A stretch of 64,000 nucleotides of DNA from the NCBI GenBank assembly GCA_965235115.1, contig OZ249436.1:5334001-5398000 (forward strand), read 5' to 3'. The notes beneath the pieces were generated by a model that ran no database searches, had not been told where the DNA came from, and saw nothing but the letters and a program-made list of their open reading frames with translations. The stretch's first letter is position 1. Each line of letters begins with the position of its first letter. The DNA is from Laetmonice hystrix (Eukaryota). This document shows, piece by piece, positions 16,171 to 44,000 of this stretch. Position numbers and translations under genes: made by a program.

Positions 16171-16246
16171 GCAAAAAATAATAATAATAGGGAAGACGAA
16201 ACCAGACAATTTCTAAATCCCATCCCCTGGATAGGGGATGGGATAA

Positions 16247-19300: not shown

Positions 19301-22300
19301 CCTCCCACAATGCTTGGCCCCACAGTGTAATGTTTGGCCTCACTGTACTCTTTGGCCTCACTGTAGTGTTCGCCTGGGTGCTAGGCCACCCAGTATACCT
19401 TGTAGCGATTCCTCCCTCTACTGTTTGGCCTTCCTGTACCGTTTGCTTGTATACAAGAGTAGCCAGTAGTATAGGGACGCCTCATGTTTCATGTTTCCAT
19501 GCTTTTATTGTCCAGGAGGCAGGCCATACGTTTCGTTTATCATCTTCTCCAATCTAATCTGTGTGCCCTACAGACCATCGGTAAGCGTCCGACAACGTTG
19601 TCAGGTCGTCGCAATGACTGTTTGCCGTAAAGGTTTTGTTAACAATGGCAAATGACGTTGTACGCCTTTTCTCTATCATTGGGGATACCGATCCTATCCC
19701 CAAGTAACAAACAAACAAAGATTACACATCTAGAGATGCTGCAGGCAGAAAACACCAGGGTGCAGCTCAGCTGACTGCACTGCCGCCTTCTGGCCAGCGG
19801 TGGAATCACCACGTACACCTGGCCGGGCTGGCAGGCACCTGTGGGTCTGAGGCGAGAGACAGGTTAAAGCAATGATAAGCGCAAAATGGCTACATTTTTG
19901 ATACGTCAATTTGAAACTACGCCCCCCAAAATTATGATTCTTCGGCCACATGTAGAACTGTCAAACGTATAGGTCTCGTACGTTCGCTACAGATATATGG
20001 TTGTGATGTGTACACTTCCCATTTGAGTATCTTCTCCAGATTTTAACATTAGAATGTCGTCGCCTGTACCTTTCATTTCTAGCTACCTCACTGTAGTGTT
20101 TGCATGACTGCTATAGGCCAGCCGGTAAAATGTTGGGACTTCTCACTCTACTGGTTGGCTTCCCACAATGCTTGGCCCCACAGTGTAATGTTTGGCCTCA
20201 CTGTACACTTTGGCCTCACTGTAGTGGTAGCTTGGGTGCTAGGCCACCCAGTATACCTTGTAGCGATTCCTCCCTCTACTGTTTGGCCTTCCTGTACCGT
20301 TTGCTTGTATACAAGAGTAGCCAGTAGTATAGGGACGCCTCATGTTTCATGTTTCCATGCCTTTATTGTCCAGGAGGCAGGCCATACGTTTCGTTTATCA
20401 TCTACTCCAATCTAATCTGTGTGCCCTACAGACCATCGGTAAGCGTCCGACAACGTTGTCAGGTCGTACCAATGACTGTTTGCCGTAAATGTTTTGTTAA
20501 CAATGGCAAATGACGTTGTACGCCTTTTCTATATCAGATATCCTATCCCCTAGTAACAAACAAACAAAGATGACACATCTAGAGATGATGCAGGCAGAAA
20601 ACACCAGGGTGCAGCTCAGATGACTGCACTGCCGCCTTCCGGCCAGCGGTGGAATCACCACGTACACCTGGCCGGGCTGGCAGGCACCTGTGGTAAAAGC
20701 CGGTAAAATGTTGGGACTTCTCACTCTACTGGTTGGCCTCCCACAATGCTTGGCCCCACAGTGTAATGTTTGGCCTCACTGTACACTTTGGCCTCACTGT
20801 AGTGTTAGCTTGGGTGGTAGGCCACCCAGTATACCTTGTAGCGATTCCTCCCTCTACTGTTTGGCCTTCCGGTACCGTTTGCTTGTATACAAGTGTAGCC
20901 AGTAGTATAGGGACGCCTCATGTTTCATGTTTCCATGCCTTTATTGTCCAGGAGGCAGGCCATACGTTTCGGTTATCATCTACTCCAATCTAATCTGTGT
21001 CCCCTACAGACCATCAGTAAGCGTCCGACAACGTTGTCAGGTCGTCGCAATGACTGTTTGCCGTAAAGGTTTTGTTAACAGTGGCAAATGACGTTGTACG
21101 CCTTTTCTATATCAGATATCCTATCCCCAAGTAACAAACAAACAAAGATTACACATCTAGAGATGCTGCAGGCAGAAAACACCAGGGTGCAGCTCAGCTG
21201 ACTGCACTGCCGCCTTCCGGCCAGCGGTGGAATCACCACGTACACCTGTCCGGGCTGGCAGGCACCTGTGGGTCTGAGGCGAGAGACAGGTTAAAGCAAT
21301 GATAAGCGCAAAATGGCTACATTTTTGATACGTCAAATTGAAACTACGCGCTCCAAAATCATGATTCTTAGGCCAGATGTAGAACTGTCAAACGTATAGG
21401 TCTCGTACGTTCGCTACAGATATATGGTTGTGATGTGTACCCTTCCCATTGGAGTACCTTCTCCAGATTTTAACATTAGAATGTCCTCGCCTGTACCTTT
21501 CATTTCCAGCTACCTCACTGTAGTGTTTGCATGGCTGCTATAGGCCAGCCGGTAAAATGTTGGGACTTCTCACTCTACTGGTTGGCCTCCCACAATGCTT
21601 GGCCCCACAGTGTAATGTTTGGCCTCACTGTACACTTTGGCCTCACTGTAGTGTTAGCTTGGGTGCTAGGCCACCCAGTATACCTTGTAGCGATTCCTCC
21701 CTCTACTGTTTGGCCTTCCTGTACCGTTTGCTTGTATACAAGTGTAGCCAGTAGTATAGGGACGCCTCATGTTTTATGTTTCCATGCCTTTATTGTCCAG
21801 GAGGCAGGCCATACGTTTCGTTTTTCATCTACTCCAATCTAATCTGTGTCCCCTACAGACCATCGGTAAGCGTCCGACAACGTTGTCAGGTCGTCGCAAT
21901 GACTGTTTGCCGTAAATGTTTTGTTAACAATGGCAAATGACGTTGTACGCCTTTTCTCTATCATTGGGGATACCGATCCTATCCCCAAGTAACAAACAAA
22001 CAAAGATTACACATCTAGAGATGCTGCAGGCAGAAAACACCAGGGTGCAGCTCAGCTGACTGCACTGCCGCCTTCTGGCCAGCGGTGGAATCACCACGTA
22101 CACCTGGCCGGGCTGGCAGGCACCTGTGGGTCTGAGGCGAGAGACAGGTTAAAGCAATGATAAGCGCAAAATGGCTACATTTTTGATACGTCAATTTGAA
22201 ACTACGCCCCCCAAAATTATGATTCTTCGGCCACATGTAGAACTGTCAAACGTATAGGTCTCGTACGTTCGCTACAGATATATGGTTGTGATGTGTACAC

Positions 22301-25300
22301 TTCCCATTTGAGTATCTTCTCCAGATTTTAACATTAGAATGTCGTCGCCTGTACCTTTCATTTCCAGCTACCTCACTGTAGTGTTTGCATGACTGCTATA
22401 GGCCAGCCGGTAAAATGTTGGGACTTCTCACTCTACTGGTTGGCCTCCCACAATGCTTGGCCCCACAGTGTAATGTTTGGCCTCACTGTACACTTTGGCC
22501 TCACTGTAGTGTTAGCTTGGGTGGTAGGCCACCCACTATACCTTGTAGCGATTCCTCCCTCTACTGTTTGGCCTTCCGGTACCGTTTGCTTGTATACAAG
22601 TGTAGCCAGTAGTATAGGGACGCCTCATGTTTCATGTTTCCATGCCTTTATTGTCCAGGAGGCAGGCCATACGTTTCGGTTATCATCTACTCCAATCTAA
22701 TCTGTGTCCCCTACAGACCATCAGTAAGCGTCCGACAACGTTGTCAGGTCGTCGCAATGACTGTTTGCCGTAAAGGTTTTGTTAACAGTGGCAAATGACG
22801 TTGTACGCCTTTTCTATATCAGATATCCTATCCCCAAGTAACAAACAAACAAAGATTACACATCTAGAGATGCTGCAGGCAGAAAACACCAGGGTGTAGC
22901 TCAGCTGACTGCACTGCCGCCTTCCGGCCAGCGGTGGAATCACCACGTACACCTGTCCGGGCTGGCAGGCACCTGTGGGTCTGAGGCGAGAGACAGGTTA
23001 AAGCAATGATAAGCGCAAAATGGCTACATTTTTGATACGTCAAATTGAAACTACGCGCTCCAAAATCATGATTCTTAGGCCAGATGTAGAACTGTCAAAC
23101 GTATAGGTCTCGTACGTTCGCTACAGATATATGGTTGTGATGTGTACCCTTCCCATTGGAGTACCTTCTCCAGATTTTAACATTAGAATGTCCTCGCCTG
23201 TACCTTTCATTTCCAGCTACCTCACTGTAGTGTTTGCATGGCTGCTATAGGCCAGCCGGTAAAATGTTGGGACTTCTCACTCTACTGGTTGGCCTCCCAC
23301 AATGCTTGGCCCCACAGTGTAATGTTTGGCCTCACTGTACACTTTGGCCTCACTGTAGTGTTAGCTTGGGTGCTAGGCCACCCAGTATACCTTGTAGCGA
23401 TTCCTCCCTCTACTGTTTGGCCTTCCTGTACCGTTTGCTTGTATACAAGTGTAGCCAGTAGTATAGGGACGCCTCATGTTTTATGTTTCCATGCCTTTAT
23501 TGTCCAGGAGGCAGGCCATACGTTTCGTTTATCATCTACTCCAATCTAATCTGAGTCCCCTACAGACCATCGGTAAGCGTCCGACAACGTTGTCAGGTCG
23601 TCGCAATGACTGTTTGCCGTAAAGGTTTTGTTAACAATGGCAAATGACGTTGTACGCCTTTTCTCTATCATTGGGGATACCGATCCTATCCCCAAGTAAC
23701 AAACAAACAAAGATTACACATCTAGAGATGCTGCAGGCAGAAAACACCAGGGTGCAGCTCAGCTGACTGCACTGCCGCCTTCTGGCCAGCGGTGGAATCA
23801 CCACGTACACCTGGCCGGGCTGGCAGGCACCTGTGGGTCTGAGGCGAGAGACAGGTTAAAGCAATGATAAGCGCAAAATGGCTACATTTTTGATACGTCA
23901 ATTTGAAACTACGCCCCCCAAAATTATGATTCTTCGGCCACATGTAGAACTGTCAAACGTATAGGTCTCGTACGTTCGCTACAGATATATGGTTGTGATG
24001 TGTACACTTCCCATTTGAGTATCTTCTCCAGATTTTAACATTAGAATGTCGTCGCCTGTACCTTTCATTTCTAGCTACCTCACTGTAGTGTTTGCATGAC
24101 TGCTATAGGCCAGCCGGTAAAATGTTGGGACTTCTCACTCTACTGGTTGGCTTCCCACAATGCTTGGCCCCACAGTGTAATGTTTGGCCTCACTGTACAC
24201 TTTGGCCTCACTGTAGTGGTAGCTTGGGTGCTAGGCCACCCAGTATACCTTGTAGCGATTCCTCCCTCTACTGTTTGGCCTTCCTGTACCGTTTGCTTGT
24301 ATACAAGAGTAGCCAGTAGTATAGGGACGCCTCATGTTTCATGTTTCCATGCCTTTATTGTCCAGGAGGCAGGCCATACGTTTCGTTTATCATCTACTCC
24401 AATCTAATCTGTGTGCCCTACAGACCATCGGTAAGCGTCCGACAACGTTGTCAGGTCGTACCAATGACTGTTTGCCGTAAATGTTTTGTTAACAATGGCA
24501 AATGACGTTGTACGCCTTTTCTATATCAGATATCCTATCCCCTAGTAACAAACAAACAAAGATGACACATCTAGAGATGATGCAGGCAGAAAACACCAGG
24601 GTGCAGCTCAGATGACTGCACTGCCGCCTTCCGGCCAGCGGTGGAATCACCACGTACACCTGGCCGGGCTGGCAGGCACCTGTGGTAAAAGCCGGTAAAA
24701 TGTTGGGACTTCTCACTCTACTGGTTGGCCTCCCACAATGCTTGGCCCCACAGTGTAATGTTTGGCCTCACTGTACACTTTGGCCTCACTGTAGTGTTAG
24801 CTTGGGTGGTAGGCCACCCAGTATACCTTGTAGCGATTCCTCCCTCTACTGTTTGGCCTTCCGGTACCGTTTGCTTGTATACAAGTGTAGCCAGTAGTAT
24901 AGGGACGCCTCATGTTTCATGTTTCCATGCCTTTATTGTCCAGGAGGCAGGCCATACGTTTCGGTTATCATCTACTCCAATCTAATCTGTGTCCCCTACA
25001 GACCATCAGTAAGCGTCCGACAACGTTGTCAGGTCGTCGCAATGACTGTTTGCCGTAAAGGTTTTGTTAACAGTGGCAAATGACGTTGTACGCCTTTTCT
25101 ATATCAGATATCCTATCCCCAAGTAACAAACAAACAAAGATTACACATCTAGAGATGCTGCAGGCAGAAAACACCAGGGTGCAGCTCAGCTGACTGCACT
25201 GCCGCCTTCCGGCCAGCGGTGGAATCACCACGTACACCTGTCCGGGCTGGCAGGCACCTGTGGGTCTGAGGCGAGAGACAGGTTAAAGCAATGATAAGCG

Positions 25301-28300
25301 CAAAATGGCTACATTTTTGATACGTCAAATTGAAACTACGCGCTCCAAAATCATGATTCTTAGGCCAGATGTAGAACTGTCAAACGTATAGGTCTCGTAC
25401 GTTCGCTACAGATATATGGTTGTGATGTGTACCCTTCCCATTGGAGTACCTTCTCCAGATTTTAACATTAGAATGTCCTCGCCTGTACCTTTCATTTCCA
25501 GCTACCTCACTGTAGTGTTTGCATGGCTGCTATAGGCCAGCCGGTAAAATGTTGGGACTTCTCACTCTACTGGTTGGCCTCCCACAATGCTTGGCCCCAC
25601 AGTGTAATGTTTGGCCTCACTGTACACTTTGGCCTCACTGTAGTGTTAGCTTGGGTGCTAGGCCACCCAGTATACCTTGTAGCGATTCCTCCCTCTACTG
25701 TTTGGCCTTCCTGTACCGTTTGCTTGTATACAAGTGTAGCCAGTAGTATAGGGACGCCTCATGTTTTATGTTTCCATGCCTTTATTGTCCAGGAGGCAGG
25801 CCATACGTTTCGTTTTTCATCTACTCCAATCTAATCTGTGTCCCCTACAGACCATCGGTAAGCGTCCGACAACGTTGTCAGGTCGTCGCAATGACTGTTT
25901 GCCGTAAATGTTTTGTTAACAATGGCAAATGACGTTGTACGCCTTTTCTCTATCATTGGGGATACCGATCCTATCCCCAAGTAACAAACAAACAAAGATT
26001 ACACATCTAGAGATGCTGCAGGCAGAAAACACCAGGGTGCAGCTCAGCTGACTGCACTGCCGCCTTCTGGCCAGCGGTGGAATCACCACGTACACCTGGC
26101 CGGGCTGGCAGGCACCTGTGGGTCTGAGGCGAGAGACAGGTTAAAGCAATGATAAGCGCAAAATGGCTACATTTTTGATACGTCAATTTGAAACTACGCC
26201 CCCCAAAATTATGATTCTTCGGCCACATGTAGAACTGTCAAACGTATAGGTCTCGTACGTTCGCTACAGATATATGGTTGTGATGTGTACACTTCCCATT
26301 TGAGTATCTTCTCCAGATTTTAACATTAGAATGTCGTCGCCTGTACCTTTCATTTCCAGCTACCTCACTGTAGTGTTTGCATGACTGCTATAGGCCAGCC
26401 GGTAAAATGTTGGGACTTCTCACTCTACTGGTTGGCCTCCCACAATGCTTGGCCCCACAGTGTAATGTTTGGCCTCACTGTACACTTTGGCCTCACTGTA
26501 GTGTTAGCTTGGGTGGTAGGCCACCCACTATACCTTGTAGCGATTCCTCCCTCTACTGTTTGGCCTTCCGGTACCGTTTGCTTGTATACAAGTGTAGCCA
26601 GTAGTATAGGGACGCCTCATGTTTCATGTTTCCATGCCTTTATTGTCCAGGAGGCAGGCCATACGTTTCGGTTATCATCTACTCCAATCTAATCTGTGTC
26701 CCCTACAGACCATCAGTAAGCGTCCGACAACGTTGTCAGGTCGTCGCAATGACTGTTTGCCGTAAAGGTTTTGTTAACAGTGGCAAATGACGTTGTACGC
26801 CTTTTCTATATCAGATATCCTATCCCCAAGTAACAAACAAACAAAGATTACACATCTAGAGATGCTGCAGGCAGAAAACACCAGGGTGTAGCTCAGCTGA
26901 CTGCACTGCCGCCTTCCGGCCAGCGGTGGAATCACCACGTACACCTGTCCGGGCTGGCAGGCACCTGTGGGTCTGAGGCGAGAGACAGGTTAAAGCAATG
27001 ATAAGCGCAAAATGGCTACATTTTTGATACGTCAAATTGAAACTACGCGCTCCAAAATCATGATTCTTAGGCCAGATGTAGAACTGTCAAACGTATAGGT
27101 CTCGTACGTTCGCTACAGATATATGGTTGTGATGTGTACCCTTCCCATTGGAGTACCTTCTCCAGATTTTAACATTAGAATGTCCTCGCCTGTACCTTTC
27201 ATTTCCAGCTACCTCACTGTAGTGTTTGCATGGCTGCTATAGGCCAGCCGGTAAAATGTTGGGACTTCTCACTCTACTGGTTGGCCTCCCACAATGCTTG
27301 GCCCCACAGTGTAATGTTTGGCCTCACTGTACACTTTGGCCTCACTGTAGTGTTAGCTTGGGTGCTAGGCCACCCAGTATACCTTGTAGCGATTCCTCCC
27401 TCTACTGTTTGGCCTTCCTGTACCGTTTGCTTGTATACAAGTGTAGCCAGTAGTATAGGGACGCCTCATGTTTTATGTTTCCATGCCTTTATTGTCCAGG
27501 AGGCAGGCCATACGTTTCGTTTATCATCTACTCCAATCTAATCTGAGTCCCCTACAGACCATCGGTAAGCGTCCGACAACGTTGTCAGGTCGTCGCAATG
27601 ACTGTTTGCCGTAAATGTTTTGTTAACAATGGCAAATGACGTTGTACGCCTTTTCTCTATCATTAAGGATACCGATCCTATCCCCAAGTAACAAACAAAC
27701 AAAGATTACACATCTAGAGATGCTGCAGGCAGGAAACACCAGGGTGCAGCTCAGCTGACTGCACTGCCGCCTTCTGGCCAGCGGTGGAATCACCACGTAC
27801 ACCTGGCCGGGCTGGCAGGCACCTGTGGGTCTGAGGCGAGAGACAGGTTAAAGCAATGATAAGCGCAAATGGCTACATTTTTGATACGTCAATTTGAAAC
27901 TACGCCCCCCAAAATTATGATTCTTCGGCCAGATGTAGAACTGTCAAACGTATAGGTCTCGTACGTTCGCTACAGATATATGGTTGTGATGTGTACACTT
28001 CCCATTTGAGTATCTTCTCCAGATTTTAACATTAGAATGTCGTCGCCTGTACCTTTCATTTCCAGCTACCTCACTGTAGTGTTTGCATGACTGCTATAGG
28101 CCAGCCGGTAAAATGTTGGGACTTCTCACTCTACTGGTTGGCCTCCCACAATGCTTGGCCCCACAGTGTAATGTTTGGCCTCACTGTACACTTTGGCCTC
28201 ACTGTAGTGTTAGCTTGGGTGCTAGGCCACCCACTATACCTTGTAGCGATTCCTCCCTCTACTGTTTGGCCTTCCGGTACCGTTTGCTTGTATACAAGTG

Positions 28301-28553
28301 TAGCCAGTAGTATAGGGACGCCTCATGTTTCATGTTTCCATGCCTTTATTGTCCAGGAGGCAGGCCATACGTTTCGGTTATCATCTACTCCAATCTAATC
28401 TGTGTCCCCTACAGACCATCGGTAAGCGTCCGACAACGTTGTCAGGTCGTCCCAATGACTGTTTGCCGTAAAGGTTTTGTTAACAATGGCAAATGACGTT
28501 GTACGCCTTTTCTATATCAGATATCCTATCCCCAAGTAACAAACAAACAAAGA
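16308..28553. repeat. ~850-bp macrosatellite, block 1 (15 monomers of 849/858/578 bp; 1707-bp dimer and 3992-bp higher-order repeat)
   Basis: Equivalent positions at 17001, 17850, 18708, 19557, 20415, 20993, 21842, 22700, 23549, 24407, 24985, 25834, 26692, 27541, 28398. Confidence 0.97.
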
Positions 28554-29243
28554 CTAGATACGTTGTGGAGTACCACAATGGATCCCATCCCCGGGGTGTC
28601 CCATGTAACATGTTCTGAATAGGGATAACTATGGTACTATCTTGCACCCGTGACGACTTATGAGCCTTAGAAGATGGAAGTTACGTCATTATGACCTTAT
28701 GCTACGTCATAAATATTGATCTCAATGGACTTCCTATTCATGTTCAAAAATAACTATAGGTGTATCTAGCACCGTTTACTAGTTACAGGCTTCTACCAAT
28801 CCTTAGAAGGGCTCAGTTACGTCATAAGGATGTAATAGATCACACAACAGAATAAATCTTGGTGTCAATTGAAAGAACATAATGAGGACTTCCTGTTTAT
28901 AAATATTCAATACTAACTATGGGTCTAACTCCTACCATTTACAAGTTAAAACCCTGAGAAAATATCGATGACATCGTTATGTCATGGGTCACGTGACCTA
29001 AGAAATAATGATGCCAAACGAAAGAGTATACATGACTTCCTATTCGTGTTCAATAGTAACTATGGGTCTAACTTCAAGCATTAACAAGTTATATCCCTTA
29101 GAAAATATCGATGACATCTTTACGACGTCACAGGTGACGTGACCTTAAGGATGACGATACCAAGTGATAGCAAGTTATAGCCCTCACAAAATATAGGTTC
29201 ACTGGCTGTGGTAATCAGTACTAGTTCAATCCAGTATTAGCTT

Positions 29244-29322
29244 GTCAGATGGCGTAGCACTGGCGATAAGTGTCTTGACTCACATGCTATGGGTCGCCGG
29301 TTCAATCCCAGGCCGAGTCACC
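29244..29322 (+). pseudogene. tRNA-like relic / SINE head inside the outer HINE
   Basis: A-box-like TGGCGTAGCACTGG, B-box GGTTCAATCCC, then a T run. The 3' part GTTCAATCCCAGGCCGAGTCAC is duplicated at ~29356. Confidence 0.5.
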
Positions 29323-30239
29323 TATTTTTTTGGACTTCTACCGGAAGGGTCCCGCGTTCAATCCCAGGCCGAGTCACGTTTCTTTTTGTTTTTGTTTTTT
29401 CCCTCTAATTTTTAAAAATGGTCACGTGACCTGAAAAAAAAAATATCATAAAAGAGCATAATGACTTCTTATCTGTGTTTAATAGTAACCAATGCCAAAT
29501 CTGGCACCGTTTACAAGTTCTAGAAAATTGACAATTTTTCGAAATTTCAAAGTCACGTGATTCAGCGAATATTAGTCAAATCGCTTATCTTTTGATGATT
29601 TGAGACAAGCTCATGTTAGAGAGTCCTTCTGCCTAATATTGTCGAATTTCACCAAAAAATGAAGAAGGAGTAGCGATTTAAGAGATTTGTGACTGAGGAC
29701 CCAGTTCTCCTAAAGTTCAAGGTCAAATGACAAATGAAGGGTCCATGTTAGACTAGACCATTGCCTGATTAAAACACCATGATGGGGTTTGGAAATTTCC
29801 AATATGAACGTCATGACGTGACGTCATACGTCACGTCACGTGATATGTCACAACTCATTGTCTGACGAGTCCTTGTCATGGTCAAGATGTGTGCCAAATT
29901 TGATTGAGATATCTTGAAAACTGACTGAGATGGACGCCACTGTTTACTACTACTACTACTACTACTACGACGCAAAGAATAACTAGCCCGACTGATTGCT
30001 TAAGCAATACAGGGATCCCTTCCCCTGACGAGGAACAATGAAGCAATAATAAAAATAATAATGATAACGAGGCAATAGGTGTTGCTAGGCAACACCAGAT
30101 CCCATTTCCCATTTATGTACATGACGTGCACCTAGCCATGACGTGTACAACTACGTGACGTGTACCTAGCCATGACGTGTACCTAGCCAAAACCAGACAT
30201 GGCGATTAGTATGGCTATAACAATGGCACAACAGGCATT

Positions 30240-31730
30240 GGTGTATTATGACGTCATTATGACGTTATACGTCACACGACGTCATAAGTCTTGGTGGCAA
30301 CTGAAAGAGCATCTATGAGTTCCTATTCGGGTTCAATAGTAACTATGATCGTATCTAGCACCGTTTAGGAGTTACAGGCCTCTGAAAATCCTTAGAAAAT
30401 GGCTATGACGTCATTATGACGTCATACGTGATGATAGGTCAAAAAGGTTGGTGGCATTCGAAAGAGCATATATGACTTCCTATTCATGTTCAATATTAAC
30501 CATGGCTCTATCTTACACCGTTTCAGAGTTACCGCCATTTGTTTCTCAAAAATGGCTATGACCCAATTTCGATGTCACATGGTATGCTAAAAATAGTGCA
30601 CAGCCCTTAGTCTGATCCCGGGGATCTGGGAAATCCCATGGAGATTCCCTGGTATAAATTTGGGCTCGATTTGTCAAAAATTGTTGGAGTTCAGGCGAAT
30701 TAGTAACATTTTGAGCTGTGACCTAGATTTCAAGAAGGTCAAAGGTCAGAGGTCAAATTGATGAATAAAATTATTCCCTCTCAAGTGGCAAGCTAAGTGC
30801 TATGAATGAATTTTCTCTGATCATGGGACTGGTAAAATGAGGCACAATGAGGTACTTCCCAAAACACCAAATTACGTCATGACGTCACGTCATATGACGT
30901 AAATCTTGGTGTCATTTGAAAGAGCATCTATGAGATCCTATTCGTGTTCAATAGTACCTATGACCCTATCTAGCACAGTTTAAGAGTTATAGGCCTCTGA
31001 AAATGCCAATGACGTCATTATGACGTTATACGTCACATGACGTCATAAATCCTGGTGTCAATTGAAAGAGCATATATGACTTCCTATTCATGTTCAATAG
31101 TAACCATGGCTCTATCTTAAACGGTTTCAGAGTTACAGCCATTTGTTTCTCAAAAATGGCTATGACCCAATTTCGATGTCACGTACGTGGTATGCTAAAA
31201 ATAGGGCACAACACCTAGTCTGATCCCGGGCCTCTGGGGAATCCTATGGAGATTCCCTGGTATCAATTTGGGCTCGATTTGTCAAAAATTGTGAGAGGAG
31301 TATCGAAATAGTCACATTTTGACCTGTAACCTAGATCTCAAGAAGGTCAAGGGTCAGAGGTCAAATTGATAAATAAAATGATTCCCCCTCGAGAGGCAAG
31401 CTGGGTGCTATGAATGAATTTTCTCTAACTGATCATGGGACTGGTACAATGTGGTACAATGAGGTACTTGCCAAAGCATCAAATAACGTCATGACGTCAG
31501 GTCATATGACGTAAATGTTAGTAACTGAAAATCCTTAGAAAATGTGAATGACGTCACTATGACGTCATAGTTTATACGTCACGATAGGTAAAAATGTTGG
31601 TGTCAATTGCAAGAGTATTTAAGACTTACTATTCATGTTGAGTAGTAACCATGGCTCTATAATACCGTTTCAGAGTTACAGTCATTTGTTTCTCAAAAAT
31701 GGCTATGACCCAAATTCAATGTCACATGCC
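30240..31730. repeat. ~600-bp internal tandem repeat (about 2.5 copies) of the inner HINE, built from TGACGTCA-rich subunits
   Basis: GTTTCTCAAAAATGGCTATGACCCAA at 30541, ~31146 and ~31688. Shares GAAAGAGCATATATGACTTCCTATT with the 146-bp repeat. Confidence 0.8.
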
Positions 31731-32299
31731 ATTTCTCTTGTTTCAAAGTTTAGCACCTGGTCGCACCCCCCCCCCCCCCCCCCCGGCAATATCCCGGGTC
31801 ATGGGCTGCCACATATCGCCATGTGGGAGGAAGGGGGTCCCCGATAAAATATAATATTTAGCCGACATATTGATATGTGACCATCCCTGGCCCAGATATT
31901 CTCCATCCAATACAATACAATATGTTTATTCACAACCTCGATGGAGGCAAAGGAACAGGGTCAGGGATTGTATCTTATAGTAGCACTGCTCACTCCATTT
32001 GCCACCGCCAGGGCCCAGCCCCCTAGCGTGAGGACAGTGTATAGTTGAGACGTGCTGCTACCTGGTGTCAAACTTCGCCCCCCCCCCCCCCCCCCCCCAC
32101 GGTTGATTGTGTGCTAACAAGATGGGTTTTTGATTTCTTACTCTAGCCATTTCCTTAGCCAAAACGCAGCCATACTTTTTAAAACGTTACACACAAGAAG
32201 CTATAAATGTTTAATCTATACATCGACTTTCAAAGCAAAAGTCTACATTAAATATTTACAAAGACAGGCAGCAGTAGCAATTCAAAGCCATGCATTAAG

Positions 32300-33522
32300 T
32301 AGCTTGGTTCCCGCCTCCCGTGTAGGTGGCGCTAGGCGCGCACGGTAGGCTAGGCACAAAGGTTGACGTCATCGCTCGTCCGGAAGTAAACAAAAGCACG
32401 TGGACTGGTGGAGTCGATCGAGCGGTACCGATCTAGCTGTTGGAATCACGCCAGAAATGGCAAGTTTTTGTTGGAGTGGTAGGCCTAGGCTATATGGCCC
32501 GTAATAATTTGATTTTACATCTCATATCACCTATGGCTATATTACAGCTCCCACCATCTCTCCTCGTCCCCCACTACCTGAACGCTTCCGAGTCCTTGTA
32601 CCACTACGGCCAGTGCTGGTTACCTGCCTGGCATCACGTCACTTACGCCCGCCGCGAATGATCCCGGGAGGCCGCCGAGCCTGCCCGGGGTGAGCGAGGG
32701 AGCGGCGGCCAGTGGCTCGCTTACTCGCTCAAACTGCCGCCGGCCCGCCGGCCGCTCGCTCGCTCGCTGCCGGGGCTTGTAGTGGGCCTCGGCCGGTCCG
32801 TTCGGCCGGGACTTGTATAGGGGGCCTCGCCCTCGGCCAGTCGGTTCGGCTAGGGCTTGTTGATCTAGGCGGATCTAGGATTTTTAAACAATTGCCGAGA
32901 ATTGGACTATATAATTGGCTGACCTATACCAACCAGCACCAGGGCGCCGCTACCGTCTGCTTTGACGGGACCCTTGGCCTTGCTGGGTCGGCGGGCTCAG
33001 TCAAATCGCGTCGGGCTCATACGCCGTGTATTCGTTCCGAACATTAAAACGGTCGCTGTCATGAGACGAAATGCGACATATTGCTCATATTTGTACCACA
33101 TCATGAGGTACATCCCCTTTGTGATTTACCAAGTTTTCAGCCATATGTCGCGATCCAGTAAAATTTTAGAGGAATTCAAACATGAAACGAACCCATCAGA
33201 CTACCCCTCAATCGACCTATTATCGCCCAATGGGGGTCACCCGATACTTCGCGTTTTCTTTACAATTCCTCCCATTAACTCACAAACTTTGATCTTAAGG
33301 TTGAATCGGTGAAGTGTATAAACATTTTAACAACGTTCTAACAGTTAATTATAAATAATAAACTGTTAGTGCTACTTATTTTCTCTTTTTTTCCGCGCAC
33401 ACGATCGCCTTTTCTGCCCGCACAGGCTCACGTGGTTTGTTTACATCTGAGCGCAAAGGATTGTGGGTGATGACGTAAACCTTTGTGCAAGACCTACACC
33501 AGTAGGTCGCGGAACAAGGCTA
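32300..33522. mobile_element. Non-autonomous DNA transposon with 9-bp TSD and long imperfect TIRs (MULE-like), nested in the inner HINE
   Basis: TSD TGCATTAAG at 32291-32299 and 33523-33531. Ends TAGCTTGGTTCC / GGAACAAGGCTA. Subterminal inverted match GCACAAAGGTT(G/T)ACGTCATC. Confidence 0.75.
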
Positions 33523-35029
33523 TGCATTAAGCAGAAAGTCATAGCTCTTCAGAAAAGTATATGCTTGATGTGCGACAGGTCTGGCGTTCGATTCCCCATC
33601 AAGTCATTTGCTGTTTTCGTTTTGATGTTGTTTTTCGACTGAATTTGAAAAATATTATGTTTCTCCCCTTTACAATTGCCAGTCATTCGGCTACAGATAA
33701 TTTACAGCTATATTTCACGTTTAATGACGAAATATACAGCATACACCACTCACTCTCTGCAGTGTGGACTTACTATGGAGAACGCCATTGGATTTAACTG
33801 AGTTTTGTTAGTAAATAGCTTCGGTCTTCACATGGCGAGTTCCATTCCGAGACTTGGAATCTCCTCTTCAAAGTTGCCTGACATTGAGCTAAATATCTAC
33901 TTGAAGTACTCCCCATAGTTTTAGGCAGAAATATTAGATACTTATTAATACAGAGGGCGATAGGCTCAGCGTCCACAGTCGGCCCATCACGCGGACACCA
34001 AGCGAGGCCCCGACATCACTCACGAAACCAGGTTTCTAGGTCACTCGATCAGTGGTCAAATTGCCTGTCTCTCTTCACGACCTTCTCTTATATAATTGAT
34101 CTCCGTATTGTTAATTATATATTTTGCCAATTGAAATTTATATTATCTTAAAGTAGACAGTTTAAAGTCCACACCGTGTAAATATTAAAACGCTGAGCTT
34201 ATTGTCCTGTAGTTGAGACGTGCCCCAAATTAAGAAAGAGATGACGTTGTAGATGACGTTGTAGATGACGTCACAAGTCACGTGGCACAAAAAATATGGT
34301 ACCTAATTAAAGTAGACATAAAACTTTCTAAGGTTCATTAAGAATTATGGCTCTGTCTCAAATCATTCAAGAGTTACAGCACAGAATCTTCGAAATGACC
34401 TAAGTCAAGCCCAAGTTCAAAACTTTCAGGTCACGTGGTTCAGCGAAAATAGGTCAAATCGCTTATCCACCGAGGAATCTGTTGGAGCTGTCCCTAGAGA
34501 GTGCCTCTGCGAAATATTGTCAAGATTTATCCAAAAATGGGGAAGAAGTAATGATTTAACCGATTTACGAGCTAGGGACCAGGTCTCTCTAAGTTCAAAG
34601 GTCAAAGGTCAAATGAAGGGTCAGACTTATGCAGCACCCTTGCCCGACTAAAATGCCATGACGGATTTTCGAAATTCCCAAGATGAGGTTCAAAAATGAG
34701 CTTTAATGTACACAACACGTTTCACGTCATGACGTCATGACGTGACGTTACGTGACGTCATGACGCACCATGAGATCAGAGTTTGTCATCGTGAAGACGT
34801 AGCCCAAGTTTCATTGAGATATCTTGAAAAATGACTGAGATATACGTATAGGTTTACGACTACTACGACTACGACTACTACTACTACTACTACTACTACA
34901 GGCATAAAAATAAGGAAGACGAAACCAGACAATTTCAAGATCCCTTCCCCTATCGGGGGAAGGGATAATAATAGGGAAGACGAAACCGTACAATCTGAAG
35001 ATCCCATCCCCCTGTAGGGGATGGGATAA

Positions 35030-38000
35030 TTACACATCTAGAGATGCTGCAGGCAGAAAACACCAGGGTGCAGCTCAGCTGACTGCACTGCCGCCTTCCG
35101 GCCAGTGGTGGAATCACCACGTACACCTGTACGGGCTGGCAGGCACCTGTGGGTCTGAGGCGAGAGACAGGTTAAAGCAATGATAAGCGCAAAATGGCTA
35201 CATTTTTGATACGTCAAATTGAAACTACGCGCCCCAAAATCATGATTCTTAGGCCAGATGTAGAACTGTCAAACGTATAGGTCTCGTACGTTCGCTACAG
35301 ATGTATGGTTGTGATGTGTACCCTTCCCATTTGAGTACCTTCTCCAGATTTTAACATTAGAATGTCCTCGCCTGTACCTTTCATTTCCAGCTACCTCACT
35401 GTAGTGTTTGCATGGCTGCTATAGGCCAGCCGGTAAAATGTTGGGACTTCTCACTCTACTGGTTGGCCTCCCACAATGCTTGGCCCCACAGTGTAATGTT
35501 TGGCCTCACTGTACTCTTTGGCCTCACTGTAGTGTTCGCCTGGGTGCTAGGCCACCCAGTATACCTTGTAGCGATTCCTCCCTCTACTGTTTGGCCTTCC
35601 TGTACCGTTTGCTTGTATACAAGAGTAGCCAGTAGTATAGGGACGCCTCATGTTTCATGTTTCCGTGCCTTTATTGTCCAGGAGGCAGGCCATACGTTTC
35701 GTTTATCATCTTCTCCAATCTAATCTGTGTGCCCTACAGACCATCGGTAAGCGTCCGACAACGTTGTCAGGTCGTCGCAATGACTGTTTGCCGTAAAGGT
35801 TTTGTTAACAATGGCAAATGACGTTGTACGCCTTTTCTCTATCATTGGGGATACCGATCCTATCCCCAAGTAACAAACAAACAAAGATTACACATCTAGA
35901 GATGCTGCAGGCAGAAAACACCAGGGTGCAGCTCAGCTGACTGCACTGCCGCCTTCTGGCCAGCGGTGGAATCACCACGTACACCTGGCCGGGCTGGCAG
36001 GCACCTGTGGATCTGAGGCGAGAGACAGGTTAAAGCAATGATAAGCGCAAAATTGCTAAATTTTTGATACGTCAATTTGAAACTACGCCCCCCAAAATTA
36101 TGATTCTTCGGCCACATGTAGAACTGTCAAGTGTATAGGTCTCGTACGTTCGCTACAGATATATGGTTGTGATGTGTACACTTCCCATTTGAGTATCTTC
36201 TCCAGATTTTAACATTAGAATGTCGTCGCCTGTACCTTTCATTTCTAGCTACCTCACTGTAGTGTTTGCATGACTGCTATAGGCCAGCCGGTAAAATGTT
36301 GGGACTTCTCACTCTACTGGTTGGCTTCCCACAATGCTTGGCCCCACAGTGTAATGTTTGGCCTCACTGTACACTTTGGCCTCACTGTAGTGTTAGCTTG
36401 GGTGCTAGGCCACCCAGTATACCTTGTAGCGATTCCTCCCTCTACTGTTTGGCCTTCCTTTACCGTTTGCTTGTATACAAGTGTAGCCAGTAGTATAGGG
36501 ACGCCTCGTGTTTCATGTTTCCATGCCTTTATTGTCCAGGAGGCAGGCCATACGTTTCGGTTATCATCTACTCCAATCTAATCTGTGTCCCCTACAGACG
36601 ATCGGTAAGCGTCCGACAACGTTGTCAGGTCGTCCCAATGACTGTTTGCCGTAAAGGTTTTGTTAACAATGGCAAATGACGTTGTACGCCTTTTCTATAT
36701 CAGATATCCTATCCCCAAGTAACAAACAAAGACGACACATCTAGAGATGCTGTAGGCAGAAAACACCAGGGTGCAGCTCAGCTGACTGCACTGCCGCCTT
36801 CTGGCCAGCGGTGGAATCACCACGTACACCTGGCCGGGCTGGCAGGCACCTGTGGCTCTGAGGCGAGAGACAGGTTAAAGCAATGATAAGCGCAAAATGG
36901 CTACATTTTTGATACGTCAATTTGAAACTACGCGCCCCAAAATTATGATTCTTAGGCCAGATGTAGAACTGTCAAACGTATGGGTCTCGTACGTTCGCTA
37001 CACATATATAGTTGTGATGTGTACACTTCCCATTTGAGTATCTTCTCCAGATTTTAATATTAGAATGTCCTCGCCTGTACTTTTCATTTCCACTACCTCA
37101 CTGTAGTGTTTCGATGGCTGCTATAGGCCAGCCGGTAAAATGTTGGGACTTCTCACTCTACTGATTGGCCTCCCACAATGCTTGGCCCCACAGTGTAATG
37201 TTTGGCCTCACTGTACTCTTTGGCCTCACTGTAGTGTTCGCTTGGGTGCTAGGCCACCCAGTATACCTTGTAGCGATTCCTCCCTCTACTGTTTGGCCTT
37301 CCTGTACCGTTTGCTTGTATACAAGTGTAGCCAGTAGTATAGGGACGCCTCATGTTTTATGTTTCCATGCCTTTATTGTCCAGGAGGCAGGCCATACGTT
37401 TCGTTTATCATCTACTCCAATCTAATCTGAGTCCCCTACAGACCATCGGTAAGCGTCCGACAACGTTGTCAGGTCGTCGCAATGACTGTTTGCCGTAAAT
37501 GTTTTGTTAACAATGGCAAATGACGTTGTACGCCTTTTCTATATCAGATATCCTATCCCCAAGTAACAAACAAAGACGACACATCTAGAGATGCTGTAGG
37601 CAGAAAACACCAGGGTGCAGCTCAGCTGACTGCACTGCCGCCTTCTGGCCAGCGGTGGAATCACCACGTACACCTGGCCGGGCTGGCAGGCACCTGTGGC
37701 TCTGAGGCGAGAGACAGGTTAAAGCAATGATAAGCGCAAAATGGCTACATTTTTGATACGTCAATTTGAAACTACGCGCCCCAAAATTATGATTCTTAGG
37801 CCAGATGTAGAACTGTCAAACGTATGGGTCTCGTACGTTCGCTACACATATATAGTTGTGATGTGTACACTTCCCATTTGAGTATCTTCTCCAGATTTTA
37901 ATATTAGAATGTCCTCGCCTGTACTTTTCATTTCCACTACCTCACTGTAGTGTTTCGATGGCTGCTATAGGCCAGCCGGTAAAATGTTGGGACTTCTCAC

Positions 38001-41000
38001 TCTACTGATTGGCCTCCCACAATGCTTGGCCCCACAGTGTAATGTTTGGCCTCACTGTACTCTTTGGCCTCACTGTAGTGTTCGCTTGGGTGCTAGGCCA
38101 CCCAGTATACCTTGTAGCGATTCCTCCCTCTACTGTTTGGCCTTCCTGTACCGTTTGCTTGTATACAAGAGTAGCCAGTAGTATAGGGACGCCTCATGTT
38201 TCATGTTTCCATGCTTTTATTGTCCAGGAGGCAGGCCATACGTTTCGGTTATCATCTACTCCAATCTAATCTGTGTCCCCTACAGACCATCGGTAAGCGT
38301 CCGACAACGTTGTCAGGTCGTCCCAATGACTGTTTGCCGTAAATGTTTTGTTAACAATGGCAAATGACGTTGTACGCCTTTTCTATATCAGATAACCTAT
38401 CCCCTAGTAACAAACAAACAAAGATGACACATCTAGAGATGATGCAGGCAGAAAACACCAGGGTGCAGCTCAGATGACTGCACTGCCGCCTTCCGGCCAG
38501 CGGTGGAATCACCACGTACACCTGGCCGGGCTGGCAGGCACCTGTGGTAAAAGCCGGTAAAATGTTGGGACTTCTCACTCTACTGGTTGGCCTCCCACAA
38601 TGCTTGGCCCCACAGTGTAATGTTTGGCCTCACTGTACTCTCTGGCCTCACTGTAGTGTTCGCTTGGGTGCTAAGCCACCCAGTATACCTTGTAGCGATC
38701 CCTCCCTCTACTGTTTGGCCTTCCGGTACCGTTTGCTTGTATACAAGAGTAGCCAGTAGTATAGGGACGCCTCATGTTTCATGTTTCCATGCCTTTATTG
38801 TCCAGGAGGCAGGCCATACGTTTCGGTTATCATCTACTCCAATCTAATCTGTGTCCCCTACAGACCATCGGTAAGCGCCCGACAACGTTGTCAGGTCGTC
38901 CCAATGACTGTTTGCCGTAAAGGTTTTGTTAACAATGGCAAATGACGTTGTACGCCTTTTCTATATCAGATATCCTATCCCCAAGTAACAAACAAACAAA
39001 GATTACACATCTAGAGATGCTGCAGGCAGAAAACACCAGGGTGCAGCTCAGCTGACTGCACTGCCGCCTTCCGGCCAGTGGTGGAATCACCACGTACACC
39101 TGTACGGGCTGGCAGGCACCTGTGGGTCTGAGGCGAGAGACAGGTTAAAGCAATGATAAGCGCAAAATGGCTACATTTTTGATACGTCAAACTGAAACTA
39201 CGCGCCCCAAAATCATGATTCTTCGGCCAGATGTAGAACTGTCAAACGTATAGGTCTCGTACGTTCGCTACAGATATATGGTTGTGATGTGTACACTTCC
39301 CATTTGAGTACCTTCTCCAGATTTTAACATTAGAATGTCCTCGCCTGTACCTTTCATTTCCAGCTACCTCACTGTAGTGTTTGCATGGCTGCTATAGGCC
39401 AGCCGGTAAAATGTTGGGACTTCTCACTCTACTGGTTGGCCTCCCACAATCCTTGGCCCCACAGTGTAATGTTTGGCCTCACTGTACTCTTTGGCCTCAC
39501 TGTAGTGTTCGCCTGGGTGCTAGGCCACCCAGTATACCTTGTAGCGATTCCTCCCTCTACTGTTTGGCCTTCCTGTACCGTTTGCTTGTATACAAGAGTA
39601 GCCAGTAGTATAGGGACGCCTCATGTTTCATGTTTCCATGCCTTTATTGTCCAGGAGGGAGGCCATACGTTTCGTTTATCATCTTCTCCAATCTAATCTG
39701 TGTGCCCTACAGACCATCGGTAAGCGTCCGACAACGTTGTCAGGTCGTCGCAATGACTGTTTGCCGTAAAGGTTTTGTTAACAATGGCAAATGACGTTGT
39801 ACGCCTTTTCTCTATCATTGGGGATACCGATCCTATCCCCAAGTAACAAACAAACAAAGATTACACATCTAGAGATGCTGCAGGCAGAAAACACCAGGGT
39901 GCAGCTCAGCTGACTGCACTGCCGCCTTCTGGCCAGCGGTGGAATCACCACGTACACCTGGCCGGGCTGGCAGGCACCTGTGGATCTGAGGCGAGAGACA
40001 GGTTAAAGCAATGATAAGCGCAAAATTGCTAAATTTTTGATACGTCAATTTGAAACTACGCCCCCCAAAATTATGATTCTTCGGCCACATGTAGAACTGT
40101 CAAGTGTATAGGTCTCGTACGTTCGCTACAGATATATGGTTGTGATGTGTACACTTCCCATTTGAGTATCTTCTCTAGATTTTAACATTAGAATGTCGTC
40201 GCCTGTACCTTTCATTTCTAGCTACCTCACTGTAGTGTTTGCATGACTGCTATAGGCCAGCCGGTAAAATGTTGGGACTTCTCACTCTACTGGTTGGCTT
40301 CCCACAATGCTTGGCCCCACAGTGTAATGTTTGGCCTCACTGTACACTTTGGCCTCACTGTAGTGTTAGCTTGGGTGCTAGGCCACCCAGTATACCTTGT
40401 AGCGATTCCTCCCTCTACTGTTTGGCCTTCCTTTACCGTTTGCTTGTATACAAGTGTAGCCAGTAGTATAGGGACGCCTCATGTTTCATGTTTCCATGCC
40501 TTTATTGTCCAGGAGGCAGGCCATACGTTTCGGTTATCATCTACTCCAATCTAATCTGTGTCCCCTACAGACGATCGGTAAGCGTCCGACAACGTTGTCA
40601 GGTCGTCCCAATGACTGTTTGCCGTAAAGGTTTTGTTAACAATGGCAAATGACGTTGTACGCCTTTTCTATATCAGATATCCTATCCCCAAGTAACAAAC
40701 AAAGACGACACATCTAGAGATGCTGTAGGCAGAAAACACCAGGGTGCAGCTCAGCTGACTGCACTGCCGCCTTCTGGCCAGCGGTGAAATCACCACGTAC
40801 ACCTGGCCGGGCTGGCAGGCACCTGTCGCTCTGAGGCGAGAGACAGGTTAAAGCAATGATAAGCGCAAAATGGCTACATTTTTGATACGTCAATTTGAAA
40901 CTACGCGCCCCAAAATTATGATTCTTAGGCCAGATGTAGAACTGTCAAACGTATGGGTCTCGTACGTTCGCTACACATATATAGTTGTGATGTGTACACT

Positions 41001-44000
41001 TCCCATTTGAGTATCTTCTCCAGATTTTAATATTAGAATGTCCTCGCCTGTACTTTTCATTTCCACTACCTCACTGTAGTGTTTCGATGGCTGCTATAGG
41101 CCAGCCGGTAAAATGTTGGGACTTCTCACTCTACTGATTGGCCTCCCACAATGCTTGGCCCCACAGTGTAATGTTTGGCCTCACTGTACTCTTTGGCCTC
41201 ACTGTAGTGTTCGCTTGGGTGCTAGGCCACCCAGTATACCTTGTAGCGATTCCTCCCTCTACTGTTTGGCCTTCCTGTACCGTTTGCTTGTATACAAGAG
41301 TAGCCAGTAGTATAGGGACGCCTCATGTTTCATGTTTCCATGCTTTTATTTTCCAGGAGGCAGGCCATACGTTTCGGTTATCATCTACTCCAATCTAATC
41401 TGTGTCCCCTACAGACCATCGGTAAGCGTCCGACAACGTTGTCAGGTCGTCCCAATGACTGTTTGCCGTAAATGTTTTGTTAACAATGGCAAATGACGTT
41501 GTACGCCTTTTCTATATCAGATAACCTATCCCCTAGTAACAAACAAACAAAGATGACACATCTAGAGATGATGCAGGCAGAAAACACCAGGGTGCAGCTC
41601 AGATGACTGCACTGCCGCCTTCCGGCCAGCGGTGGAATCACCACGTACACCTGGCCGGGCTGGCAGGCACCTGTGGTAAAAGCCGGTAAAATGTTGGGAC
41701 TTCTCACTCTACTGGTTGGCCTCCCACAATGCTTGGCCCCACAGTGTAATGTTTGGCCTCACTGTACTCTCTGGCCTCACTGTAGTGTTCGCTTGGGTGC
41801 TAAGCCACCCAGTATACCTTGTAGCGATCCCTCCCTCTACTGTTTGGCCTTCCGGTACCGTTTGCTTGTATACAAGAGTAGCCAGTAGTATAGGGACGCC
41901 TCATGTTTCATGTTTCCATGCCTTTATTGTCCAGGAGGCAGGCCATACGTTTCGGTTATCATCTACTCCAATCTAATCTGTGTCCCCTACAGACCATCGG
42001 TAAGCGCCCGACAACGTTGTCAGGTCGTCCCAATGACTGTTTGCCGTAAAGGTTTTGTTAACAATGGCAAATGACGTTGTACGCCTTTTCTATATCAGAT
42101 ATCCTATCCCCAAGTAACAAACAAACAAAGATTACACATCTAGAGATGCTGCAGGCAGAAAACACCAGGGTGCAGCTCAGCTGACTGCACTGCCGCCTTC
42201 CGGCCAGTGGTGGAATCACCACGTACACCTGTACGGGCTGGCAGGCACCTGTGGGTCTGAGGCGAGAGACAGGTTAAAGCAATGATAAGCGCAAAATGGC
42301 TACATTTTTGATACGTCAAACTGAAACTACGCGCCCCAAAATCATGATTCTTCGGCCAGATGTAGAACTGTCAAACGTATAGGTCTCGTACGTTCGCTAC
42401 AGATATATGGTTGTGATGTGTACACTTCCCATTTGAGTACCTTCTCCAGATTTTAACATTAGAATGTCCTCGCCTGTACCTTTCATTTCCAGCTACCTCA
42501 CTGTAGTGTTTGCATGGCTGCTATAGGCCAGCCGGTAAAATGTTGGGACTTCTCACTCTACTGGTTGGCCTCCCACAATCCTTGGCCCCACAGTGTAATG
42601 TTTGGCCTCACTGTACTCTTTGGCCTCACTGTAGTGTTCGCCTGGGTGCTAGGCCACCCAGTATACCTTGTAGCGATTCCTCCCTCTACTGTTTGGCCTT
42701 CCTGTACCGTTTGCTTGTATACAAGAGTAGCCAGTAGTATAGGGACGCCTCATGTTTCATGTTTCCATGCCTTTATTGTCCAGGAGGGAGGCCATACGTT
42801 TCGGTTATCATCTACTCCTATCTAATCTGTGTCCCCTACAGACTATCGGTAAGCGTCCGACAACGTTGTCAGGTCGTCGCAATGACTGTTTGCCATAAAG
42901 GTTTTGTTAACAATGGCAAATGACGTTGTACGCCTTTTCTCTATCATTGGGGATACCGATCCTATCCCCAAGTAACAAACAAACAAAGATTACACATCTA
43001 GAGATGCTGCAGGCAGAAAACATCAGGGTGCAGCTCAGCTGACTGCACTGCCGCCTTCTGGCCAGCGGTGGAATCACCACGTACACCTGGCCGGGCTGGC
43101 AGGCACCTGTGGGTCTGAGGCGAGAGACAGGTTAAAGCAATGATAAGCGCAAAATGGCTACATTTTTGATACGTCAATTTGAAACTACGCCCCCCAAAAT
43201 TATGATTCTTCGGCCACATGTAGAACTGTCAAGTGTATAGGTCTCGTACGTTCGCTACAGATATATGGTTGTGATGTGTACACTTCCCATTTGAGTATCT
43301 TCTCCAGATTTTAACATTAGAATGTCGTCGCCTGTACCTTTCATTTCCAGCTACCTCACTGTAGTGTTTGCATGACTGCTATAGGCCAGCCGGTAAAATG
43401 TTGGGACTTCTCACTCTACTGGTTGGCCTCCCACAATGCTTGGCCCCACAGTGTAATGTTTGGCCTCACTGTACACTTTGGCCTCACTGTAGTGTTAGCT
43501 TGGGTGCTAGGCCACCCACTATACCTTGTAGCGATTCCTCCCTCTACTGTTTGGCCTTCCGGTACCGTTTGCTTGTATACAAGTGTAGCCAGTAGTATAG
43601 GGACGCCTCATGTTTCATGTTTCCATGCCTTTATTGTCCAGGAGGCAGGCCATACGTTTCGGTTATCATCTACTCCAATCTAATCTGTGTCCCCTACAGA
43701 CGATCGGTAAGCGTCCGACAACGTTGTCAGGTCGTCCCAATGACTGTTTGCCGTAAAGGTTTTGTTAACAATGGCAAATGACGTTGTACGCCTTTTCTAT
43801 ATCAGATATCCTATCCCCAAGTAACAAACAAAGACGACACATCTAGAGATGCTGTAGGCAGAAAACACCAGGGTGCAGCTCAGCTGACTGCACTGCCGCC
43901 TTCTGGCCAGCGGTGAAATCACCACGTACACCTGGCCGGGCGGGCAGGCACCTGTCGCTCTGAGGCGAGAGACAGGTTAAAGCAATGATAAGCGCAAAAT

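Follow-up and report, generated by a model that had tools for sequence, protein, structure and literature searches.

Evidence for recurrent, site-specific self-insertion of Helentron/HINE elements at their own 5′ ends in Laetmonice hystrix

A nested pair of transposable elements in the genome of Laetmonice hystrix raises the question of whether one Helentron-type element entered another by chance or whether such elements insert again and again at a fixed site in their own 5′ ends. The pair lies in a stretch of 64,000 nucleotides (contig OZ249436.1, positions 5,334,001 to 5,398,000 of the forward strand, assembly GCA_965235115.1), hereafter the window. On its minus strand, an outer element of the HINE type (35029 to 28554) encloses an inner one (34968 to 29983; 4,986 bp). 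We refer to the 5′ end of an element as its head, to the 3′ end as its tail, and to the 11-bp subterminal inverted repeat (sub-TIR) as its box. The original prediction, drawn from the letters of the window, held that two independent self-targeting events had occurred here and that co-variation of the 5′ and 3′ sub-TIRs implies functional pairing of the ends.

Anatomy and recurrence of the nested insertion

Both elements start with TTATCCC and an 11-bp hairpin, behind which lie a core that is conserved, a T/A tract, and a microsatellite of GTA; at their 3′ ends, the 11-bp box precedes a small hairpin and the terminal CTAG. The head of the outer element (family a; 34969 to 35029) comprises TT, the sub-TIR left arm (35027 to 35017), a 5-nt loop, the inverted repeat (IR) that forms the right arm (35011 to 35001), the conserved core (34993 to 34975), and the first portion of a TTA tract. 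This tract is interrupted by the inner element (family b, with a T-variant box; 29983 to 34968), whose head (34900 to 34968) holds the left arm (34966 to 34956), IR (34950 to 34940), core, and T-rich tract, with a GTA microsatellite module of the DINE-1/HINE type behind it (34855 to 34899). Its 3′ end (29983 to 30025) carries the sub-TIR (30025 to 30015), hairpin (30008 to 29995), and CTAG (29986 to 29983). The outer body and 3′ end (28554 to 29982) resume with the remaining TTA tract, a GTA microsatellite, and degenerate repeats, and close with the sub-TIR (28592 to 28582), hairpin (28578 to 28563), and CTAG (28557 to 28554). The insertion junction is exact (CCCTATTA/inner element/TTATTC), with the inner element at +61 of the outer one and no target duplication. 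The two boxes differ by one base, and the difference is present in all three box copies of each element. The features that the original prediction had described were all present where it had placed them, on the minus strand, with one correction: the 12-mers near 35000 and 34939 do match the 3′ sub-TIRs, but they are the right arms (IR) of the 5′ hairpins, direct repeats of the 3′ sub-TIRs, and the true inverted partner in each element is the left arm. A second outer head of family a, identical to the first, lies on the minus strand at 16247 to 16307, and a different element does abut it at 16246/16247, again at +61.

Several lines of evidence indicate that such insertions arose independently. 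Un-nested hosts exist: among family-a copies on contig C1, which carries the window, four are empty (1,486 to 1,499 bp) and 10 are filled with four inner families, and an empty copy at locus L031 (1,489 bp), compared with the outer pieces in the window, shows 11 differences over 1,489 positions. The doubled 5′ end is therefore not a consensus that lacks empty copies. Joining the two tract halves restored the same empty tract in 9/9 fetched loci, with cuts at +61 (five loci), +64 (three), and +65 (one). The inner family comprises at least five lineages, most of them present in several host families, and at L047 one b lineage is nested within another. In three a[b] composite pairs that share an inner lineage, the inserts differed at 4/1,440 positions and the hosts at 45/4,133 (p = 0.003), which makes the inserts younger than their hosts. 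Because the inner lineages are not tied to the outer copies, the insertions appear to be recurrent and independent. Each of the 10 filled copies of family a on C1 ends in the tail that belongs to it, and none is a two-head/one-tail product. A few duplicated composites exist (a 150-nt doubled head with 97 to 100% identity at 10 loci on 6 contigs; two a[c] composites of equal length 27 kb apart), and composites have mostly not spread as units. Together with the abundance of stacked heads described below, these results lead us to hold with high confidence that self-insertion is recurrent and site specific, as the original prediction had proposed from two loci.

To establish the scale of this process, we searched the genome (627 Mb, 35 contigs); what is said of the genome as a whole is based on counts of exact patterns, the first 100 matches listed per pattern, and 52 fetched loci. 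Loci L001 to L050 were chosen for a doubled head and are biased accordingly (20/30 extended). Exact 5′ heads of the two box classes in the window numbered 3,045, against 0 for the reversed control, and tails 3,249, against 46, so that heads and tails are balanced. Directly behind another head stood 1,211 of the 3,045 heads. Tail-head junctions (18 nt or less) numbered 355 on one strand against 1,526 heads, or ~23%, an approximate value since the head pattern is looser; the reverse-strand count was used here, the forward counts being double. Because the stacked heads and the ~23% of heads behind a sibling's 3′ end add up in this way, about 60% of insertions are at self sites, and the remaining ~40% are at T-rich sites. 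Four further box classes contributed about 1,960 heads, 654 of them stacked, in counts that are strand skewed and may include repeats. Of the 184 heads listed for C1 as far as 23.9 Mb, 74 sit 61 to 82 nt behind another head on the same strand, and 0 of these 184 have an opposite-strand head within 300 nt. The stacked-head pattern had no match in metagenome contigs; in sequencing runs it gave three matches, all from a single study and therefore not independent, which do not enter the counts.

The nests also have an ordered structure. When the first 100 heads and first 100 tails of C1 were matched as brackets (three spurious tail matches being dropped), 83 pairs formed, nested like brackets. Each head paired with a tail of its own kind in 14/14 cases for family a (a-A) and 8/8 for family b (b-B), and the deepest nest at a cleanly parsed C1 locus had four levels. 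Inner and outer lengths are equal in some nests (2,224/2,224; 1,080/1,079/1,079). Family a is nearly always the outermost element, and none of nine family-b heads on C1 carries an insertion; the b tract is TTATTTTT, not TTA repeats. Elements on C1 cluster at 22 to 26 Mb.

Two arrangements on this contig have other orientations. At G000:C1:22930098-22937519, plus-strand elements lie within the body of a minus-strand element, an opposite-strand insertion away from the head site. At G000:C1:25819997-25820063, two different tails of opposite orientation are fused and flanked on either side by a head, a rare inverted junction.

Choice of target and matching of ends

Like inserts into like. Adjacent host and insert shared a box class in 62/74 pairs (22.1 in shuffles) and, with one pair taken per locus, in 21/22 (9.9 in shuffles); cross-class insertions made up the other 12/74. 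Classes A and C, which have a common core motif and different boxes, crossed in 2/74 pairs. By-eye tallies of the first 100 matches in the stacked-head lists gave 9 and 7 crossings between two class groups and are consistent with this preference. Self-insertions lie 61 to 82 nt inside the host, before a T, and leave both host ends intact. The cut is most commonly 32 nt behind the head box (29 nt in family b), and the 3′ end of an element lies 28 to 33 nt behind its tail box, in counts that include overlapping loci.

We consider it somewhat probable that the transposase binds the cognate 5′ end of a resident element and then nicks the first TTA^TT, with the 5′ ends of Helentrons (HLE2) as the preferred target. 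That the targeting step is recognition of the cognate end by the protein is a prediction we regard as evenly balanced. In Helraiser (HLE1), an HUH enzyme transfers a single strand from a circular intermediate joined at CTAG (PMC4778049; here and below, citations refer to the accessible portions of each source). If circle and strand transfer are carried over from Helraiser, the Rep domain would carry a single-stranded donor circle (junction CTAG^TT) and would also bind the cognate box and hairpin of a resident head and open it, and the nick would fall at the first TTA^TT behind the resident box. Because the cut-to-box spacing (29 to 32 nt) equals the box-to-CTAG spacing (28 to 33 nt), the head may present a mimic of the natural cleavage site. 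Every insertion would add a new head and leave the old site usable, such that stacks grow, and siblings would align tail to head in one tract. The ~40% of insertions at T-rich sites would follow a second, box-independent mode.

The host satellite that surrounds the nest bears on this model. Its arrays (16308 to 28553 and 35030 to 47810) have a unit of ~850 bp and a higher-order period of 849/858/849/858/578, and the genome has at least 28,222 units, which amount to about 4% of its length. The outer element interrupts a unit cleanly, and 27 of the 29 units listed run through the site without an element. The unit carries a class-A-like box 14 to 25 nt from an insertion hot spot with at least 39 insertions, some of them duplicated along with the array; by our estimate, uniform insertion would place roughly 0.5 in such a stretch. 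Usage per target is some hundreds of times below that of a head. Only three families use the hot spot (family-a types, one of class G, and one of class F), in several cases as copies of about 1.5 kb by coordinates, and the common families e, d, c, and b were absent from the 34 places listed.

A number of results weigh against recurrent insertion guided by the box. The prediction that the hot spot would receive class A only failed: its 34 heads are 18 of family-a types, 9 of class G, and 7 of class F. Because 16/34 thus belong to class F or G, a lone box does not select its own class, and the satellite site obeys another rule. Within class A, where the box is identical, same-family pairs still numbered 14/33 (4.0 expected) and, per locus, 5/14 (2.1 expected; p = 0.04), a preference that needs more than the box. 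Preference between classes also follows the overall identity of the heads (A-A, 0.87; A-B, 0.85; A-C, 0.80; A-F, 0.76; A-G, 0.69). As for independence, the correlation of outer with inner distances over eight composites was weak and borderline (Mantel ρ = 0.20, p = 0.07). In the bracket matching, 17/100 heads and 14/100 tails were left unpaired.

The ends themselves match closely. Among 48 parsed pairs of 5′ and 3′ ends, 39 were exact over the variable 6-mer, 6 had an outer-base mismatch, 1 had a degenerate head, and 2 were parse errors (both at L039; L042 was dropped as overlapping it). Left arm, IR, and tail box vary in concert, and four box classes are paired in the loci. The co-variation asserted by the original prediction is therefore real, as expected of elements for which family-specific matched sub-TIRs have been described (HINE/DINE-1; PMC4067079, PMC7492417), but functional pairing does not follow from it, since protein binding to three copies of one box predicts the same co-variation. 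The idea at stake is that the 5′ left arm pairs with the 3′ sub-TIR at mobilization, switching from the 5′ hairpin, and that matched ends are needed. We judge this possible, on balance doubtful. Matched arms are predicted to form a duplex of about −15 kcal/mol, ~3 kcal/mol better than mismatched arms (−12) and slightly better than the hairpin (about −13), and the 10 filled family-a copies on C1 yielded no two-head/one-tail product. Against it, the six pairs with an outer mismatch occur in young copies (6/18 correctly parsed copies of the inner family), and most class-A families share an identical box, so that pairing could not distinguish the inner tail from the host tail. Head loop and tail hairpin, which are unable to pair, co-vary as tightly by descent.

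A second alternative to recognition by protein is guidance by DNA, in which the first ~60 nt of the incoming strand would pair with the opposite strand of the resident in a displacement loop (D-loop), and the displaced top strand would fold into its hairpin and be nicked at the TTA tract, where homology stops. The site lies exactly where the heads of all families cease to be alike, and the graded assortment (family, then class, then cross-class), parallel to head identity, fits this scheme as well as it fits the favored model. The scheme would also yield same-strand insertion and the single-stranded target that HUH enzymes require (PMC4778049). Nevertheless, the 12 cross-class pairs join heads just ~70 to 80% alike, the donor 5′ hairpin (about −13 kcal/mol) would compete with invasion, and the protein domains, as judged from sequence, show no evident strand-exchange activity. 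We regard DNA guidance as unlikely.

More improbable still is capture of a peeled strand, in which the 5′ part of a host under mobilization is single stranded and bound by Rep when a second circle joins it, and the composite then lands or religates; this includes a copy that reinserts into its own donor. It would account for strand, 5′ proximity, same-family bias, and the nests of equal inner and outer lengths. However, 9/14 class-A loci are cross-family, and because of this a copy re-entering its own donor is not the whole story. The nested b lineages of L047 and the younger inserts in older hosts also speak against it, and Helraiser showed no local hopping in the portions of PMC4778049 available.

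An ordinary preference for TTA or T-rich sites, combined with regional clustering and survival in harmless places, is largely refuted, and we give it very little credence. T-rich preference is known for HINEs (PMC4067079, PMC7492417). Sites of fresh insertion here have a pattern close to YTHA^TY, a TTA tract in an element body received one insertion (L043), and elements cluster on C1, as noted above. Against this stand the ~60% of insertions concentrated in a few thousand heads despite 20,259 overlapping genome-wide matches to the 11-nt TTA tract and about two million to TTATT (extrapolated from 30 kb), the finding that just 1 or 2 of the roughly 17 separate non-self sites among the loci were TTA tracts, and the class assortment (21/22), which this preference cannot produce. 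Least probable is the reading of the doubled head as the consensus of a family, or as a single founder chimera that multiplied as one unit in the manner of Fusarium FoHeli1: the near-identical 150-nt heads and the equal-length a[c] composites fit it and it may hold for a few copies, yet it is refuted as a general cause by the empty hosts, the three registers, the inner lineages (at least five, most of them in several host families), and hosts with their own tails. Crossover between a circle and a resident head was ruled out, as it would yield tandem copies with swapped heads, not stacks.

The left-hand nest and flanking features

The second family-a head occupies the same position in a satellite unit as the right outer head. 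The element inserted in it (family d head; minus strand) fills positions 1 to 16246 and extends beyond the window to G000:C1:5323538. Bracket matching by coordinates joins its head at C1:5350246 to a matching tail at C1:5323538 on the same strand, 26.7 kb apart; the tail of the left outer element, also beyond the window (G000:C1:5322113), lies 1.4 kb past the inner tail, and satellite follows again. Left and right nests as one duplicated event was ruled out, the unit variants on both flanks and the inner families being different; the left and right hosts differ at 1/477 bases, a value uninformative on shared origin.

Between the head and tail of the left inner element, linked to them by coordinates and by reading of part of the intervening DNA, lies an open frame of 2,902 codons, the first 811 of which (the 5′ part) are in the window (3 to 2435, minus strand). 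The later part of the frame encodes Rep (PF14214), PIF1 (PF05970), and endonuclease (PF03372) domains, the last C-terminal (Pfam E values at locus L051 of 4e-36, 4e-20, and 9e-11, respectively). By bracket matching and Rep-PIF1-endonuclease architecture, the left inner element is an autonomous-type Helentron. The N-terminal part of the transposase (3 to 2435) gave a single weak Pfam hit below the cutoff and seems to contain two related peptidase-like segments. Genome-wide, 102 of the 106 best Rep matches fall in open frames of more than 1,600 codons, matched without a stop, and because of this we conclude that the superfamily has been active recently. Short palindromic and inverted-pair inserts lie within the left Helentron (7529 to 7656, 8177 to 8335, and 10547 to 10717). 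Elsewhere, at G000:C5:29448625-29533159, four transposase frames of equal length recur at ~28-kb spacing, probably as entire Helentrons arrayed in tandem.

The inner element of the right nest carries two further features. A third-level insert of 1.2 kb (32300 to 33522), whose terminal inverted repeats match imperfectly and which is flanked by a target duplication of 9 bp, is not present in related b copies; we take it to be a Mutator-like miniature inverted-repeat transposable element. Upstream of the true tail lies a relic tail on the minus strand (30050 to 30109; box at 30109 to 30099, hairpin, and TTA tract) that is class-F-like. The TTA tract behind this relic is a secondary insertion site in two other b copies (L032:3977, L044:5840), and neither insert belongs to class F. 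Segments in both HINE bodies (29230 to 29390 and 33560 to 33620) look tRNA-derived by eye and received no ARAGORN or Rfam call.

In the satellite, an RNA-gene array was ruled out, with no Rfam match and no tRNA. An inverted piece of a satellite unit, ~70 to 80% diverged, lies at 48154 to 48566 beside a shorter repeat region (47811 to 49536).

Meaning and relation to known systems

For the study of target choice in Helentrons and of the role of their sub-TIRs, this genome is a rich source. It contains about 100 long, open reading frames for the transposase, ~5,000 intact ends that fall into six box classes, and insertions by the thousand at one site, and with them end recognition, end pairing, and target capture become directly testable. 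It is conceivable, and in our estimation rather doubtful, that the Helentron transposase is a site-specific integrase targeting its own 5′ end, possibly with the 60-nt head as a DNA guide. If so, each box class would be a near-orthogonal pair of transposase and landing pad, cargo of up to 27 kb would be inserted at single-base precision without target duplication and with the landing site regenerated, and the doubled 5′ ends seen in other HLE2 elements, so far unexplained, may have arisen by the same rule. By self-targeting, a very active transposon could also plausibly multiply and yet spare its host. In practical terms, the bracket nests date families relative to each other, and because doubled heads look like a consensus, the nests will mislead repeat annotation.

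By domains, ends, and repeats, the elements are Helentrons/HINEs (HLE2). The autonomous type has Rep and PIF1 in one open reading frame with a C-terminal apurinic-type endonuclease and HINE-type ends around it. HINE/DINE-1 elements are described with sub-TIRs of 11 to 15 bp that lie 2 to 4 nt away from the 5′ terminus and about 40 nt away from the 3′ terminus (PMC4067079, PMC2374699, PMC7492417); here, 11-bp arms with an IR lie 2 nt from the 5′ end, and the tail boxes start 39 and 43 nt from the 3′ end. The 3′ hairpin, microsatellite, and central repeats are also present, and 28554 to 35029 is noncoding as judged from repeat content. The likeness to published Helentron/HINE/DINE-1 elements thus extends to the 5′ sub-TIR with IR, microsatellite, central repeats, and 3′ sub-TIR with hairpin (PMC4067079, PMC2374699, PMC7492417, PMC11417382), as well as to the T-rich target, a Rep-helicase-endonuclease partner, family-specific sub-TIRs, and the lack of target duplication, the last borne out by the empty satellite sites and 9/9 host tracts. 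In contrast, the accessible literature describes clustering and a preference for TT, with no fixed self-site inside the element and no nesting matched by class, and the elements here end in CTAG and mostly have A before the cut (A^T, not T^T, the T being assignable to either side). With the element taken as TT...CTAG, the cut reads mostly A^T; taken as T...CTAGT, it gives T^Y, and the two readings are inseparable. HLE1 elements start with 5′-TC and have no inverted repeats; the present ones start with TTA, carry sub-TIRs, and have in common with HLE1 the CTAG end and the A^T-like target only.

Other systems resemble part of this behavior. Maize Helitrons have multiple termini and tend to insert near or inside other Helitrons, with nested intermediates proposed (PMC3288121); unlike the elements here, they are HLE1, show no fixed position in the portions of that report available, and have internal 3′ ends that are mostly damaged. 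Paramecium Helitrons show an inferred target specificity and an absolute orientation bias (10.1101/2025.11.06.686955). Their apparent target, in contrast, is the host telomere repeat, not their own end, and they form a separate clade. Adeno-associated virus (AAV) Rep, an HUH enzyme, integrates at AAVS1 at its own binding site near a nick site (PMC2900306), which would make it a functional analog. The AAV element is unrelated, however, and the comparison is by analogy only; here, the parallel lies in spacing and assortment only, and the satellite test was negative. Relaxase-mediated oriT-oriT integration and guide pairing in IS200/IS605 are further works-like analogies from unrelated elements.

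The element type was known and self-insertion had been anticipated; the precision, the scale, and the like-with-like rule are new in that we did not find them described. In the literature searched, with Repbase, subscription reviews, and most supplements outside the search, we met no description of a self-site that is fixed, used recurrently, matched by class, and associated with balanced nests, and the accessible portions of PMC11934779 and PMC3630058 describe no fixed class-matched self-insertion site. The closest precedent is Fusarium FoHeli (Helitron2), in which short stacked 5′ ends (31 to 85 nt, up to five) were ascribed to self-insertion (PMC5148889, PMC13342296), and copies from one strain repeatedly show an identical duplication of 73 or 31 nt (PMC5148889, supplement). 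As far as these sources extend, FoHeli differs in that several 5′ ends go with one 3′ end, repeat length is strain specific, spread is by transposition, and one nested example is given. In L. hystrix, heads and tails are balanced, 10/10 hosts keep their own tails, complete balanced nests are the rule, insertion into a fixed tract is recurrent, and the interlocking elements belong to about 20 families of six box classes. Viewed against FoHeli, these nests would turn the self-insertion hypothesis for multiheaded Helitrons into an observed, ordered process.

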